Below are positions 8,487-53,067 of a DNA stretch of 64,000 bases, in pieces; the stretch's first letter is position 1, and each line of letters begins with the position of its first letter. The translations under genes were made by a program, and so were the position numbers. Below the pieces are notes generated by a model, which was not told the DNA's origin, made no database searches, and worked only from the letters and a program-made list of their open reading frames with translations. The stretch lies in the NCBI RefSeq assembly GCF_003018255.1, contig NZ_CP027440.1. The stretch is one strand, 5' to 3'. The stretch comes from Escherichia coli. GTDB taxonomy: Bacteria > Pseudomonadota > Gammaproteobacteria > Enterobacterales > Enterobacteriaceae.

Positions 8487-10376
8487 TTACGCATCACCAC
8501 CGAAACGACGACGACCGGTAGAGTCATCACGACGCGGAGCGCGGCCTTCACGACGTTCGCCGCTAAAACGACGACCATCACCACGACCACCTTCACGGCG
8601 TTCACCGCTGAAGTTACGACCGCCTTCACGACGTTCGCCACTGAAACCACGACCACCGCCACGACGCTCACCGCCAGTATGCGGCTGTGCATCGCCCAGT
8701 AACTGCATGTTCATCGGCTTGTTGAGAATGCGAGTGCGTGTAAAGTGTTGCAGCACTTCACCCGGCATACCTTTCGGCAGTTCGATGGTGGAGTGAGAAG
8801 CAAACAGCTTGATGTTACCAATGTAACGGCTGCTGATGTCGCCTTCGTTAGCAATCGCACCAACGATATGACGAACTTCAACACCATCATCGCGGCCCAC
8901 TTCAATGCGGTACAGCTGCATATCGCCAACATCACGACGTTCACGACGCGGACGATCTTCACGGTCACCACGCGGGCCACGGTCGTTACGATCGCGCGGA
9001 CCACGGTCATCACGGTCACGGAATTCACGTTTCGGACGCATCGGCGCATCTGGCGGAACAATCAGAGTACGTTCACCCTGTGCCATTTTCAGCAGTGCGG
9101 CGGCCAGAGTTTCGAGATCCAGCTCTTCACCTTCTGCCGTCGGCTGAATTTTGCTCAGCAGTGCACGGTATTGATCCAGATCGCTGCTTTCCAGCTGCTG
9201 CTGTACTTTAGCGGCGAATTTTTCCAGACGACGTTTGCCCAGCAGTTCTGCGTTCGGCAGTTCAACTTCCGGAATGGTCAGCTTCATGGTGCGTTCAATG
9301 TTACGCAGCAGACGACGCTCACGGTTCTCAACGAACAGCAGCGCACGGCCAGCACGGCCCGCACGACCAGTACGACCGATACGGTGAACGTAAGACTCAG
9401 AATCCATCGGGATATCGTAGTTAACTACCAGGCTGATACGCTCAACGTCCAGGCCACGGGCCGCAACGTCGGTCGCAATCAGGATGTCCAGACGACCATC
9501 TTTCAGTCGTTCCAGTGTCTGCTCACGCAGCGCCTGGTTCATGTCACCGTTCAGCGCGGCGCTGTTGTAGCCGTTACGCTCAAGGGCTTCTGCCACTTCC
9601 AGAGTCGCGTTTTTGGTACGAACGAAGATAATCGCCGCATCAAAATCTTCCGCTTCCAGGAAACGTACCAGTGCTTCGTTTTTACGCATACCCCAGACAG
9701 TCCAGTAGCTCTGGCTGATGTCAGGACGGGTAGTCACGCTGGACTGAATGCGCACTTCCTGCGGCTCTTTCATAAAGCGGCGGGTAATGCGACGAATCGC
9801 TTCCGGCATGGTTGCAGAGAACAGAGCGGTCTGATGACCTTCCGGGATCTGCGCCATAATAGTTTCAACGTCTTCGATGAAGCCCATGCGCAGCATTTCG
9901 TCAGCTTCATCCAGAACCAGACCGCTCAGTTTAGAAAGGTCCAGAGTGCCACGTTTCAGGTGATCCAGCAGACGGCCCGGAGTACCGACAACGATCTGCG
10001 GCCCCTGACGCAGGGCGCGTAATTGCACGTCATAACGCTGGCCGCCGTACAGGGCAACCACGTTTACGCCGCGCATGTGTTTAGAGAAATCCGTCATTGC
10101 CTCAGCAACCTGTACCGCCAGTTCGCGGGTCGGTGCCAACACCAGAATCTGTGGTGCTTTCAGCTCAGGATCAAGATTCTGCAGCAGAGGTAAAGAGAAT
10201 GCTGCAGTTTTTCCGCTCCCCGTCTGGGCCATACCCAGAACGTCGCGGCCATTCAGCAGATGTGGAATACACTCTGCCTGAATTGGAGATGGTTTTTCGT
10301 AACCCAGATCGTTAAGGGCTTCAAGGATAGGAGCCTTCAGGCCCAGATCTGCAAAAGTGGTTTCGAATTCAGCCAT
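8487..10376 (-). CDS. deaD: DEAD-box ATP-dependent RNA helicase DeaD (CsdA)
   Basis: Track ORF 8487..10442 (TTG) trimmed to ATG 10376 ([21 protein letters not shown]...), 629 aa; DEAD and SAT motifs; RG-rich C-terminal tail. Confidence 0.96.
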
Positions 10377-10449
10377 GTAGTACGTGTGCCTCAAAATTAA
10401 TGGCGGCCAGTCTACATAACTCATCATGAAATTGATCAGCAATTTTCAT
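10369..10449 (-). CDS. yrbN: Small protein YrbN (26 aa) in deaD leader
   Basis: Own translation: atg aaa att gct gat caa ... cat ggc tga = [26 protein letters not shown]; its stop overlaps the deaD ATG (ATGGCTGA). Confidence 0.6.
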
Positions 10450-10555
10450 TGAAAAGTGTGAACCGGCTCAAAGTAGGTGTATTAACGAACAACAACGCCC
10501 TCACCCGTTAAGGTGATGGCAATCAAAAAAGATTACGGGCTGATGTGTACGTCAG

Positions 10556-11440
10556 CTATTGCTGGTCCGATTCTGCCAGGTCATCTTGGTCCTGGCCCAG
10601 GAGCGATAATTCCAACAATGCGTATCGGTGCTCAACAAAGTTATGAACGTTGTTGGCAACCGCCAGTTTGAACAGTGCCGTGGCGCTGTCCAAATCCCCC
10701 AGACTTAGGTAGTACTTACCTAAATAGAAGTTGGTTTCACTGAGATGCTCAGCGAGCGAGGTGTTATCCGTTGCGTCCGCCTTGAGCCTTTCCATTAACG
10801 TTTGTTCGCTAATGTTGCCCAGGTAGAACTCGACAATGTTCCATCCCCACTGTTCCTTATCCGATTTTTCGAAGTGCTGTTTCAACACTTCTTTAGCCTG
10901 CTTCTCATCGAGCTTCTGCTCGGCGAGATAAAGCCACAGACTACGGAAAGGATCATTGGGATCGTCTTGATAAAACGCCAGCAGATCATCTTGCGCTAAC
11001 TTGTCACGACCGCCGTAATATAATGCGATCCCGCGATTCAAGTGCGCGTAGTTGTAAGTTGGATCAAGCTCAAGTACAGAATCAAACGCTTCATAGGCAG
11101 CATCAAAATTGCCTGCCTGCGTTAAATATATGCCTAAGTAATTGAATACTTCAGGCATATCCGGTCGGATTGCCAGCGCTTGCGAAAAATCGTTACGCGC
11201 TAATGCCCTCAGACCGAGACTATCATACAACACTCCGCGCTCATATAAAAGCTGTGCGCGTTCGTCATCGGTTAAAGCCCGACTGGCAAGGATTTGTTCC
11301 ATACGTGCCAGAATCACTTCCTGCTGTAAAGTCGGTTGCAATGGTACCGCGAGGACTTCACTTTTACGCCAGGAAGTATTACTGCATCCTGCAAGCGTAA
11401 GTGCTGTCGCAACGAAACACCAGCGCAAAAAAGGCTTCAT
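10556..11440 (-). CDS. nlpI: TPR-repeat outer-membrane lipoprotein NlpI
   Basis: Track ORF, 294 aa; lipobox LTLAGC; TPR repeats. Confidence 0.95.
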
Positions 11441-13724: not shown

Positions 13725-13915
13725 CTGGTGTTAATACCCGATCTTCTGCGCATCCTCGCGACTAATGACAACCCTAACCCAGCTCTATGTGGGTAAAGCC
13801 TCTCATTAGCCGCGCGAACCTCTGCAGCGGAAGATCATTCATAGCAACAATACATTAGTTTCCAGTGAATTGCTGCCGTCAGCTTGAAAAAAGGGGCCAC
13901 TCAGGCCCCCTTTTC
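13725..13915 (+). ncRNA. sraG: Possible SraG (PsrO) sRNA antisense to the pnp leader
   Basis: Recalled location of SraG in the rpsO-pnp intergenic region on the opposite strand; plus-strand hairpin ggggccactcaggcccc + TTTT at 13893..13914 would give its 3' end; 5' end not determined. Confidence 0.3.
13886..13914. terminator. Bidirectional hairpin terminator (rpsO terminator)
   Basis: aaaaaaggggccactcaggcccccttttct: GC stem flanked by A-run and T-run. Confidence 0.75.
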
Positions 13916-13930
13916 TGAAACTCGCAAGAA

Positions 13931-14296
<366 letters not shown>

Positions 14297-15740: not shown

Positions 15741-15771
15741 TTAATTTCAGGTGGAAGGGCTGTTCACGTTG

Positions 15772-15845
15772 GCCTGATAAGACGCGCCAGCGTCGCATCA
15801 GGCAATCCATGCCGGATGCGGCGTAAACGCCTTATCCCGCATGGA
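15772..15845. repeat. REP/BIME element
   Basis: gcctgataagacgcgccagcgtcgcatcaggc and gccggatgcggcgtaaacgccttatcccgc match the REP consensus. Confidence 0.65.
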
Positions 15846-20522: not shown

Positions 20523-20545
20523 GCCCACCCCCAAGACATAAAAAA

Positions 20546-20608
20546 AGGGCCTAAAGCCCAGTTATTCTGTAGTCAGATAACAAAAAACCCCGATAAATCG
20601 GGGCTTTA
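20546..20608 (-). terminator. Two tandem hairpin/U-run structures between metY and rimP
   Basis: Minus strand gggctttaggccc + U-run and agccccgatttatcggggtttttt. Confidence 0.5.
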
Positions 20609-20728
20609 TATAACTGAACCCTATAACCGCAACTGCGGTCTGGAGCACTTTCCAGAAGGATTTTTTCAAATCCCACTACGAAGGCCGAAGTCTTCACAGT
20701 ATATTTGAAAAAGGACTCTAAGGGAAAG

Positions 20729-20805
<77 letters not shown>

Positions 20806-24585: not shown

Positions 24586-24672
24586 TGGTACCGAGGACGG
24601 GACTTGAACCCGTAAGCCCTATTGGGCACTACCACCTCAAGGTAGCGTGTCTACCAATTCCACCACCTCGGC
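24586..24672 (-). tRNA. leuU: tRNA-Leu (GAG)
   Basis: Reverse complement is GCCGAGGTGGTGGAATTGGTAGACACGCTACCTTGAGGTGGTAGTGCCCAATAGGGCTTACGGGTTCAAGTCCCGTCCTCGGTACCA: long variable arm, CCA end. Confidence 0.93.
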
Positions 24673-31321: not shown

Positions 31322-31358
31322 GCAAAAAAATACCGACCCGGGTACAAGTCCCAGGTCA
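31322..31358 (-). promoter_or_regulatory. graL: Leader terminator in greA 5' region (GraL-type attenuator)
   Basis: Minus strand: imperfect stem ACCUGGG/CCCGGGU followed by a U7 run, about 100 nt upstream of the greA ATG; coordinates approximate. Confidence 0.4.
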
Positions 31359-31476
31359 GCTACAATTCACATTTTGATAGTCATTTTACCCTGAAGTTCC
31401 CGAAGGGTCATCGTTTACTTTATAGGGCGTTGCGCCGTAGTATGACGGCTCGATTCCAGGTTGTTAGCGCGAGATT

Positions 31477-52946: not shown

Positions 52947-53067
52947 GTGCGGCCTGAAAAACAGTGCTGTGCCCTTGTAACTCATCATAATAATTTACGG
53001 CGCAGCCAAGATTTCCCTGGTGTTGGCGCAGTATTCGCGCACCCCGGTCTAGCCGGGGTCATTTTTT
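52947..53067 (+). ncRNA. arcZ: ArcZ (SraH/RyhA) sRNA
   Basis: Sequence matches recalled ArcZ: gtgcggcctgaaaaacagtgctgtgccc...acggcgcagccaagatttccctggtgttggcgcagtattcgcgcaccccggtctagccggggtcatttttt; terminator hairpin plus T6 overlaps the arcB stop on the opposite strand; 5' end approximate. Confidence 0.75.

Follow-up and report, generated by a model that had tools for sequence, protein, structure and literature searches.

Does the very short ORF that runs into the start of deaD in Escherichia coli encode a working peptide, or does its translation serve the expression of deaD itself? DeaD (CsdA) is a major cold-shock helicase, and in the window, i.e. the whole 64,000-nt stretch of E. coli DNA analysed here, its gene is preceded by nlpI and yrbN on one strand (Table 1), an order also found in the 80 Enterobacterales loci compared below. 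A sequence-only reading had described a YrbN-like ORF of 26 codons whose TGA overlaps the deaD ATG, placed it in the long deaD 5′ UTR, and taken the overlap as typical of translational coupling or of a leader peptide. The sequence and translation of this ATG-to-TGA frame are exactly as claimed: read on the minus strand from 10449 to 10369, it is ATG AAA ATT GCT GAT CAA TTT CAT GAT GAG TTA TGT AGA CTG GCC GCC ATT AAT TTT GAG GCA CAC GTA CTA CAT GGC TGA. The ORF is the catalogued small gene yrbN, and its product is YrbN itself rather than a YrbN-like peptide. Indeed, RefSeq annotates it as such, the peptide is identical to K-12 b4685 (UniProt C1P618), and it matches the entry NC_000913.3:3307853-3307933(-) printed in PMC10746267 Table S8. 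The NCBIfam model NF033440 (small_YrbN, equivalog) aligns with positions 1–26 of 26 at 76.3 bits, against a cut-off of 33 bits; other forms score 74 bits (Serratia-type), 47 bits (Photorhabdus) and 40 bits (Edwardsiella). No difference from the K-12 gene was observed in the peptide, the position between nlpI and deaD, or the 8-nt overlap. Of 5426 complete E. coli genomes, 5425 have the surrounding 321-nt region, 5424 of them with at least 99% identity, and the E. coli matches listed carry the ORF annotation 'yrbN: protein YrbN'. As the ORF listing for the 5.5 kb around yrbN has 83 entries of 20 codons or more, the presence of such a frame in a single sequence is not beyond chance; support for yrbN comes from comparison and annotation.

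Table 1. Features of the yrbN-deaD junction, in window coordinates.
Feature	Position	Strand	Description
yrbN	10369..10449	-	26 codons + TGA; RefSeq yrbN, b4685, WP_010723222.1; NCBIfam NF033440
deaD	8487..10376	-	1890 nt = 629 codons + stop; ATG at 10376-10374
yrbN/deaD overlap	10369..10376	-	8 nt, ATGGCTGA = deaD ATG + yrbN TGA
nlpI (upstream gene)	10556..11440	-	nlpI-deaD spacer of 179 nt, contains yrbN
Hairpin 5′ arm (predicted)	10405..10421	-	AGUUAUGUAGACUGGCC; yrbN codons 10-15, inside GAGTTATGTAGACTGGCCGCC
Hairpin 3′ arm (predicted)	10371..10390	-	GGCACACGUACUACAUGGCU; last two G of GAGG, deaD AUG, deaD codon 2
SD-like GAGG of deaD	10389..10392	-	12 nt before AUG in E. coli
Block A	10451..10473	-	CTTTGAGCCGGTTCACACTTTTC; near-invariant, just upstream of yrbN ATG, no SD motif
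Weak AU hairpin	10428..10447	-	GAAAAUUG-CUGAU-CAAUUUC; G of yrbN AUG + codons 2-7

Both the gene and its possible role have a history, and the finding of the ORF in a sequence scan is ordinary: yrbN is already known, the preprint 10.1101/2021.03.08.434349 crediting its first description to Hemm et al. 2008, and that 2021 preprint itself proposed a leader-peptide role. The location in a long 5′ UTR is borne out by the published length of the deaD leader, 838 nt, among the longest known in E. coli, which mediates DeaD-, Rho- and RNase E-dependent control (autoregulation) (PMC7430678). yrbN and deaD lie on a single transcript (10.1101/2021.03.08.434349; PMC7430678), and zero promoter activity was reported downstream of the deaD promoter (10.1101/2021.03.08.434349). 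In agreement with the preprint, our promoter and terminator scan of 10300-10700 found none, and block A is thus no obvious promoter. Ribosome density, which the sequence-only reading had named as a check, is on record: yrbN is among the previously known sORFs with footprints sufficient for statistics, and at pH 5.8 vs 7.6 it shows a RIBO log2FC of +1.83 (padj 4.8e-5) with an RNA value of +1.81 (PMC10746267 Table S8). A Pfam search of the YrbN peptide returned zero domains, an Rfam search of the nlpI-deaD spacer returned zero family matches, leader families included, and a literature search returned no reported function for YrbN. Judging from the figure legend in which it occurs, the label 'yrbN_PAIR_0' (PMC6001520) appears to denote YnfR beside a csp gene, not the yrbN locus, and was set aside.

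The comparative set comprises 80 Enterobacterales loci covering yrbN, collected via DeaD and representing 55 distinct sequences; Morganellaceae except Photorhabdus, and Budviciaceae, fall outside it. The yrbN ORF is intact in 80/80 loci. Over the variable codons 3–9, which occur in 32 distinct versions, stops are found in 0/32 in the yrbN frame vs 17/32 and 27/32 in the other two, and over codons 2–16 the pN/pS ratio is 0.55 in the yrbN frame, the lowest of the three, vs 1.34–1.40 in the others. Every indel between the conserved core and an overlapping stop is a multiple of 3. The length varies, with forms of 18 codons (15 species), 19 codons (2 species) or 24–26 codons, and the end never falls before the 5′ arm of the predicted hairpin. 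At the junction with deaD, an 8-nt overlap is present in 49 species and an 11-nt overlap in 14, while in the remaining 17 the yrbN stop lies 12–16 nt upstream of the deaD ATG, always beyond the 5′ arm. Among the more distant relatives searched for covariation, yrbN was absent outside Enterobacterales; in Plesiomonas it is degenerate, and one Plesiomonas MAG has lost the start ATG and reading frame of yrbN together with the hairpin. An insect symbiont has kept the overlapping ORF without a stable hairpin.

A multiple-of-3 indel would keep the deaD frame too, and the same region could in principle be read as an N-terminal extension of DeaD: the frame is open to a TTG at 10442 (651 codons in the ORF listing) and contains ATG ATG at 10427-10422. 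Such an extension is hardly credible, and we rejected it for two reasons. Many genera have no start codon in this frame, Serratia, Yersinia and most Pantoea among them (GAC GAG at codons 9–10), and in Dickeya the frame is interrupted, a frame change having brought the TGA of yrbN into phase with deaD 12 nt ahead of the deaD ATG. The DeaD N-termini of the 80 species align as M[AT][ED].. from the ATG at 10376, and the deaD of the window has the length of the RefSeq deaD CDS, annotated in its 629-codon form.

What selection preserves in yrbN differs along its length. Codons 3–6 evolve nearly neutrally (pS 0.37, pN 0.36, pN/pS ~0.95), and the C-terminal third of the peptide is variable, replaced or deleted across species. 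For codons 10–16 the pS is 0.04–0.07 and for the final 40 codons of nlpI it is 0.48, so that synonymous sites of the core are 7–10x more conserved, and the block GAGTTATGTAGACTGGCCGCC (10402-10422, minus strand) has almost no variation at any codon position, with a column entropy near zero. The conserved nucleotides include wobble positions as well as 23 nt upstream of the yrbN ATG. Since the synonymous sites of the core are so much more conserved than those of nlpI, protein constraint alone is insufficient, and the pattern suggests that the constraint on yrbN acts on nucleotides rather than on the peptide. The synonymous-site check thus gives a divided answer: synonymous sites of the core vary far too little for an ordinary coding sequence, but of the three frames that of yrbN shows the lowest pN/pS and is the sole one without stops. 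The expected conservation of the peptide rather than just the nucleotides did not hold across the 80 species, where the nucleotides are conserved instead.

These data bear directly on the view that YrbN is a stand-alone small protein acting in trans, its overlap with deaD reflecting only compact operon organisation and co-expression. A peptide of this kind would agree with the curation of YrbN by NCBI as an equivalog family, with the low pN/pS of its frame, with the footprints recorded for it (PMC10746267) and with a core, F-[HLQ]-D-E-L-C-R-L-A-A, that is kept in nearly all species and whose codons 8 and 9 carry some synonymous wobble changes (CAT/CAC and GAT/GAC). Because the nucleotides of the core are invariant, selection on the core peptide remains compatible with the alignment. 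Against it stand the neutral codons 3–6, the C-terminal third that is replaced or lost across species, the excess conservation at core synonymous sites, and the lack of a Pfam domain and of a reported function in the searches above. The signature of a trans-acting small protein, purifying selection on amino acids combined with free synonymous change, is not what yrbN displays, and we regard this view as unlikely.

A structural role for the conserved block is suggested by RNA folding. The core is predicted to pair with the deaD start region in an interrupted helix of ~17 base pairs (-19.2 kcal/mol, z = -3.62; 0/200 shuffles equally stable), in which the SD-like GAGG has its two final G paired and the deaD AUG has a predicted probability of being unpaired of 0.01–0.09 in a 239-nt context at 10–42 °C. 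Most species (57) have 12 nt between GAGG and AUG, a distance that counts as poor under the established E. coli rules; 22 have 9 nt and 2 have 10 nt. The sequestering hairpin is the MFE fold in 55/55 distinct sequences (-14.6 to -20.8 kcal/mol). Of eight other lineages, six have z-scores of -2.2 to -4.6, the values for Edwardsiella (-0.8) and Cedecea (-1.7) being weak. The 3′ arm differs in sequence in Dickeya and Photorhabdus, but its pairing with the constant 5′ arm is still predicted, in other registers. As both arms are almost invariant, no true base-pair covariation is seen, and support for the predicted hairpin is thermodynamic and from conservation. With yrbN missing beyond Enterobacterales and decayed in Plesiomonas, the search in more distant relatives yielded zero informative compensatory changes. 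The insect symbiont shows a G-C to U-A change that was not counted, as it lies in AT-rich sequence that forms no stable hairpin.

We give an even chance to the explanation that yrbN serves mainly as a leader ORF for coupling, whose translation unmasks the start of deaD, rather than to encode a functional peptide. The deaD AUG and half of its GAGG would be locked in the hairpin, whose 5′ arm is formed by yrbN codons 10–15. The yrbN start is AU-rich and lacks a Shine-Dalgarno sequence; ribosomes would enter there and melt the hairpin by translating its 5′ arm. Termination would follow 5 nt beyond the A of the deaD AUG in most species, or 12–16 nt before this AUG in Erwiniaceae and Dickeya, and initiation at the freed deaD start could then be by the same ribosome or by a freshly recruited 30S subunit. 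Formation of the hairpin in vivo, its opening by yrbN translation and the dependence of deaD translation on this opening are inferred. As in coupled pairs, the upstream stop lies at or near the downstream start on one transcript, with an 8- or 11-nt overlap or a 12–16-nt gap.

The coupling or leader role put forward in the sequence-only reading was in part well placed: the frame open in 80/80 loci, the yrbN start without a Shine-Dalgarno sequence, the GAGG 12 nt away and the deaD AUG buried in a predicted hairpin all favour it. The feature that reading had stressed, the overlap of stop and start, proved not to be the conserved one, as the 17 non-overlapping species attest. In addition, CTGA in deaD codons 2–4 is present in a Pasteurellaceae-like genome and in another gammaproteobacterial contig, both without yrbN, and conservation of the TGA was accordingly rejected as evidence for yrbN. 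Points against coupling are a competing RNAalifold fold, the weak z-scores of Edwardsiella and Cedecea, the symbiont without a hairpin, and the dark GFP fusions of the preprint. A deaD-lacZ fusion in which the leader is cut down to its final 100 nt was well expressed (PMC7430678); it retains yrbN, which falls within those 100 nt, and direct and coupled initiation are not separated by it. This segment, with yrbN, was not dissected in PMC7430678 or 10.1101/2021.03.08.434349, and neither mentions the constraint pattern or the predicted hairpin, which are the additions made here. If yrbN unmasks the deaD start, a translational layer would be added to DeaD control, and the retention in every enteric genome of a freely changing 'protein' would be explained. 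Conserved small ORFs in leaders may, as a caution, be filed as protein families where the selected feature is RNA pairing together with translation.

The opposite sign of control has also to be considered, with yrbN as a repressive uORF whose ribosomes occlude or compete with the deaD start and lower DeaD synthesis. Because the ORFs overlap, a ribosome elongating or terminating on yrbN covers the deaD AUG. Short overlaps in bacterial operons, in opposition to this, normally couple positively, and the predicted hairpin would already close deaD without translation of yrbN. The full leader including yrbN is repressive, but it is equally repressive without the yrbN segment, and the GFP fusions of the same study were dark with and without that segment (10.1101/2021.03.08.434349). 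Repression of this type seems to us very improbable.

A second conserved element, block A, gives rise to an alternative structure. Its GCCGGTT (10461-10467) can pair with GACTGGC (10406-10412), in competition with the deaD-start hairpin, and RNAalifold on the whole spacer picks the pairing of block A with yrbN codons 13–15, which would leave the deaD start free. The predicted pairing of block A with codons 9–15 has an energy of -18.6 kcal/mol (z = -2.5), and the two folds are nearly iso-energetic, with a mean difference of ~2 kcal/mol over the 55 sequences. The base of the weak AU hairpin, GAAA/UUUC, pairs in 54–55 of the 55 distinct sequences, with a variable stem top. It is a tentative but real possibility that the core is retained not for its peptide but as the central strand of an RNA switch worked by translation, in which pairing with block A would open deaD and pairing with the SD/AUG region would close it, tying DeaD synthesis to ribosome traffic on the leader ORF. 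The ribosome would then act as the helicase that opens a helicase gene, and as structured start sites fail in the cold, such a switch could matter most there. An H-type pseudoknot, with both outer helices present at once, is conceivable as well.

The same elements might instead act purely as RNA in the autoregulated leader, through their structure or by binding DeaD, RNase E, Rho or an sRNA; the ORF would then be a bystander and its translation without effect. Conservation at the nucleotide level, wobble positions and the 23 upstream nucleotides included, the two folds of near-equal energy and the known control exerted through the leader (PMC7430678) are in line with this. The frame, however, stays open through its variable segments, indels between core and overlapping stop preserve it, and footprints are recorded on yrbN (PMC10746267). 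Moreover, the leader deletion 101-820 retains blocks A, B and C and loses DeaD autoregulation (PMC7430678), so these blocks are insufficient for it; the deletion also argues against their pairings as the DeaD autoregulation switch. All told, an element indifferent to translation appears quite improbable.

Coupling by unmasking, in which upstream translation opens a structure hiding a downstream RBS, occurs in the MS2 coat/replicase pair and in infC-rpmI-rplT. Like the upstream ORF of such systems, yrbN would include one strand of a helix that has the deaD SD and AUG in its opposite strand, and it stops at or near the deaD start. Unlike them, it has only 18–26 codons, lies in a leader and lacks an SD of its own, and the dependence of deaD on it is putative. 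The short leader ORF also resembles the erm leaders and amino-acid attenuators, as codons 9–15 are predicted to pair with either block A or the deaD start. It differs from those in overlapping deaD and in having no intrinsic terminator between the two ORFs, where the scan of 10300-10700 found no terminator-like site; neither a regulatory codon run nor a known arrest motif is evident in YrbN.

The 5′ UTRs of cspA-type cold-shock genes carry elements named the cold box and the upstream box. Two short matches to the cspA UTR were noted in the deaD region: TGACGTACACA (10544-10554) in the deaD leader agrees with TGACGTACAGA at 10/11 positions, and the 8-mer AGGCACAC is common to both (10384-10391 in deaD); by our own estimate, ~0.2 and 0.4 such matches are expected by chance between two regions. 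The contexts of the 8-mer differ: in deaD it overlaps the GAGG and belongs to the predicted hairpin, and in cspA its position is far upstream of the SD.

The 26-codon frame found by the sequence-only reading, with its end overlapping the deaD ATG, lies in E. coli chromosomal DNA in the minus-strand gene order pnp, nlpI, yrbN, deaD, mtr, and its final 8 nt (ATGGCTGA) contain the deaD ATG. An ORF of this length is unremarkable within one sequence: in the 5.5 kb around yrbN, 83 ORFs reach 20 codons or more. The location first given was right, and so was the name YrbN: the peptide scores 76.3 bits against the NCBIfam equivalog NF033440 'small_YrbN' (cut-off 33 bits), with no match in Pfam, and the K-12 counterpart is b4685 (3307853–3307933). 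The 321 nt around yrbN are matched in 5425 of 5426 complete E. coli genomes, with at least 99% identity in 5424, and the annotation 'yrbN: protein YrbN' stands at the locus in every one among the matches listed.

Coordinates of yrbN, its neighbors, and other features of the window
Feature	Coordinates	Strand	Remarks
nlpI	11440..10556	minus	gene upstream of yrbN
Cold-box-like motif	10544-10554	minus	TGACGTACACA, 2 nt past nlpI stop
nlpI-downstream hairpin	10501-10516	minus	UCACCU-UAAC-GGGUGA, then G/U-rich tail
Block A	10451-10473	minus	CTTTGAGCCGGTTCACACTTTTC, almost invariant in 78 species
yrbN	10449..10369	minus	ATG-to-TGA frame, 26 codons
Open deaD-frame extension	10377-10442	minus	TTG 10442; ATG ATG 10427-10422
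8-mer	10384-10391	minus	AGGCACAC, overlapping deaD SD-like GAGG
deaD	10376..8487	minus	ATG at 10376-10374
SraG	13743-13914		Rfam
S15 leader	14144-14258		Rfam
naRNA4	15771-15841		Rfam
rimP leader	20540-20640		Rfam
Two tRNAs	20732-20805 and 24589-24672		Rfam
greA leader	31325-31446		Rfam
ArcZ	52947-53054		Rfam

yrbN is real and already known. A preprint (10.1101/2021.03.08.434349) attributes its discovery to Hemm et al. 2008, remarks on the 8-nt overlap and suggests a leader peptide; none of its GFP fusions gave fluorescence, whether or not they carried the yrbN segment. A ribosome profiling study (PMC10746267) counts yrbN among known sORFs and reports a parallel rise of its footprints (log2FC +1.83) and RNA (+1.81) at pH 5.8; ribosome footprints on yrbN therefore exist. 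Ojha and Jain (PMC7430678) mapped the deaD transcription start 838 nt upstream and showed that DeaD autoregulates via Rho and RNase E in a leader-dependent manner; their 101–820 leader deletion retains yrbN. A search of that paper for small protein, ORF and nlpI returned nothing, and yrbN is absent from the sections covered.

The nlpI-deaD spacer was aligned for 80 deaD loci, one per species, spanning Enterobacteriaceae, Erwiniaceae, Yersiniaceae, Hafniaceae, Pectobacteriaceae, and Photorhabdus. Every one of the 80 loci that span the region has an unbroken yrbN ORF with its ATG. Its TGA overlaps deaD by 8 nt in 49 species (24–26 codons) and by 11 nt in 14 (26 codons), or the frame ends short of the deaD ATG, with a TAA in TAAGAGG 16 nt before it in 15 species, mostly Erwiniaceae (18 codons), and a TGA 12 nt before it in two, both Dickeya (19 codons). 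Among the 32 distinct versions of the variable codons 3–9, none carries a stop in the yrbN frame, against 17 and 27 in the other frames, and pN/pS over codons 2–16 is lowest in the yrbN frame (0.55, against 1.34–1.40).

The peptide itself does not appear to be the conserved object. Codons 3–6 have a pN/pS of 0.96 (pS 0.37, pN 0.36), while codons 10–16 (GAG TTA TGT AGA CTG GCC GCC) have a pS of 0.04–0.07, a pN of ~0.02 and a pN/pS of 0.27–0.52. The last 40 codons of nlpI give a pS of 0.479 (pN 0.046, pN/pS 0.10), and the synonymous sites of codons 10–16 are therefore 7–10 times more conserved than those of nlpI. The 23 nt upstream of the yrbN ATG are likewise near-invariant. Synonymous sites thus answer in two ways, the core being too conserved for ordinary coding and the yrbN frame having the lowest pN/pS. 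With an open frame and frozen synonymous sites, the frame is maintained, yet the constraint falls mostly on nucleotides; conservation at the RNA level plus frame maintenance is what this analysis adds.

Folding of 10422..10365 predicts a single hairpin, a further addition, that joins yrbN codons 10–15 (AGUUAUGUAG-AC-UG-GCC) to the deaD start (GGC-CA-GU-CUACAUGGCU), its second arm taking in the AUG and codon 2 of deaD together with the final two G of the SD-like GAGG. It is described neither in the preprint nor in PMC7430678. Its energy is −19.2 kcal/mol (z = −3.62; 0/200 shuffles equally good), and in a 239-nt context the predicted probability of the deaD AUG being unpaired is 0.01–0.09 from 10 to 42 °C. 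The hairpin is the minimum-energy fold in 55/55 distinct sequences (−14.6 to −20.8 kcal/mol), with z of −4.6 in Pectobacterium, −4.5 in Dickeya, −3.2 in Serratia, −2.7 in Pantoea, −2.35 in Photorhabdus, −2.2 in Hafnia, −1.7 in Cedecea, and −0.8 in Edwardsiella. Dickeya and Photorhabdus have differing 3′ arms that pair in new registers with an unchanged 5′ arm.

The simplest reading, which we hold with belief and doubt in equal measure, is that yrbN translation may unmask the deaD start. The deaD GAGG, 12 nt from the AUG in 57 species and 9–10 nt in others, is predicted to be closed; yrbN has no SD, GGUUCACACUUUUCA preceding AUG AAA. A ribosome translating yrbN would of necessity melt the 5′ arm, and at any observed yrbN stop the 3′ arm would lie inside the ribosome or just ahead. 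All three ORF architectures run beyond the 5′ arm, as unmasking requires, which would explain why the exact overlap is dispensable. The chief points against it are a competing fold and the lack of covariation, true covariation being not assessable because both arms are almost invariant. In this predicted fold, GCCGGUU.AC.ACUU of block A (10467–10454), the near-invariant stretch before the yrbN ATG, pairs with yrbN codons 9–15 (−18.6 kcal/mol, z = −2.5). RNAalifold favours it for the whole spacer; the deaD-sequestering fold is better by ~2 kcal/mol on average (range −9 to +3, 55 sequences). The outer helices of the two cross, so they are predicted to be mutually exclusive or to form a pseudoknot. 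The coupling first suggested is reasonable and strengthened by these analyses, short of proof. Block A is also more conserved than an SD-less start site would be expected to need.

Synteny of pnp-nlpI-deaD is kept in a Pasteurellaceae-like genome and another gammaproteobacterial contig, in neither of which the yrbN sequence was found; TTG or GTG frames end there at the same CTGA at chance level only. With CTGA present in two yrbN-less genomes, we rejected it as evidence for yrbN and attribute it to the N-terminus of DeaD (M-[AT]-[ED]). An insect symbiont has a 21-codon ATG ORF overlapping deaD by 13 nt, and folding found no stable hairpin there. In a Plesiomonas MAG, on one 2.3-kb contig (L085, 1200–1320), block A (GTTCACAGTTTTG) and the yrbN core (TAATGTAAACTGGCGCCC) can still be recognized as remnants, the yrbN ATG, ORF, and hairpin being jointly lost.

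Several other features were observed in the spacer. The cold-box-like motif is near-invariant in Enterobacterales and agrees at 10 of 11 positions with a stretch of the cspA UTR, a short match. AGGCACAC is identical to an 8-mer of the cspA leader (GCCGAAAGGCACAC, locus L082, ~313–326), in the region known as the 'upstream box', a match so short that it may be due to chance. DeaD proteins of 646 or 651 codons from the upstream starts were rejected, the extension not being conserved in other genera. The nlpI-downstream hairpin shows true compensatory changes between species (one pair AU 54, GC 15, GU 3; another CG 49, UG 14, UA 11) and has the look of a weak terminator or attenuator for nlpI; the E. 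coli version does not match a simple terminator consensus. Between the cold-box-like motif and this hairpin, Serratia grimesii (L043, ~1171–1330) carries a ~130-nt insertion that by eye resembles an ERIC-type enterobacterial intergenic repeat. Elsewhere in the window, the six RNA elements called by Rfam gathering-score matches and the two tRNAs are all known.
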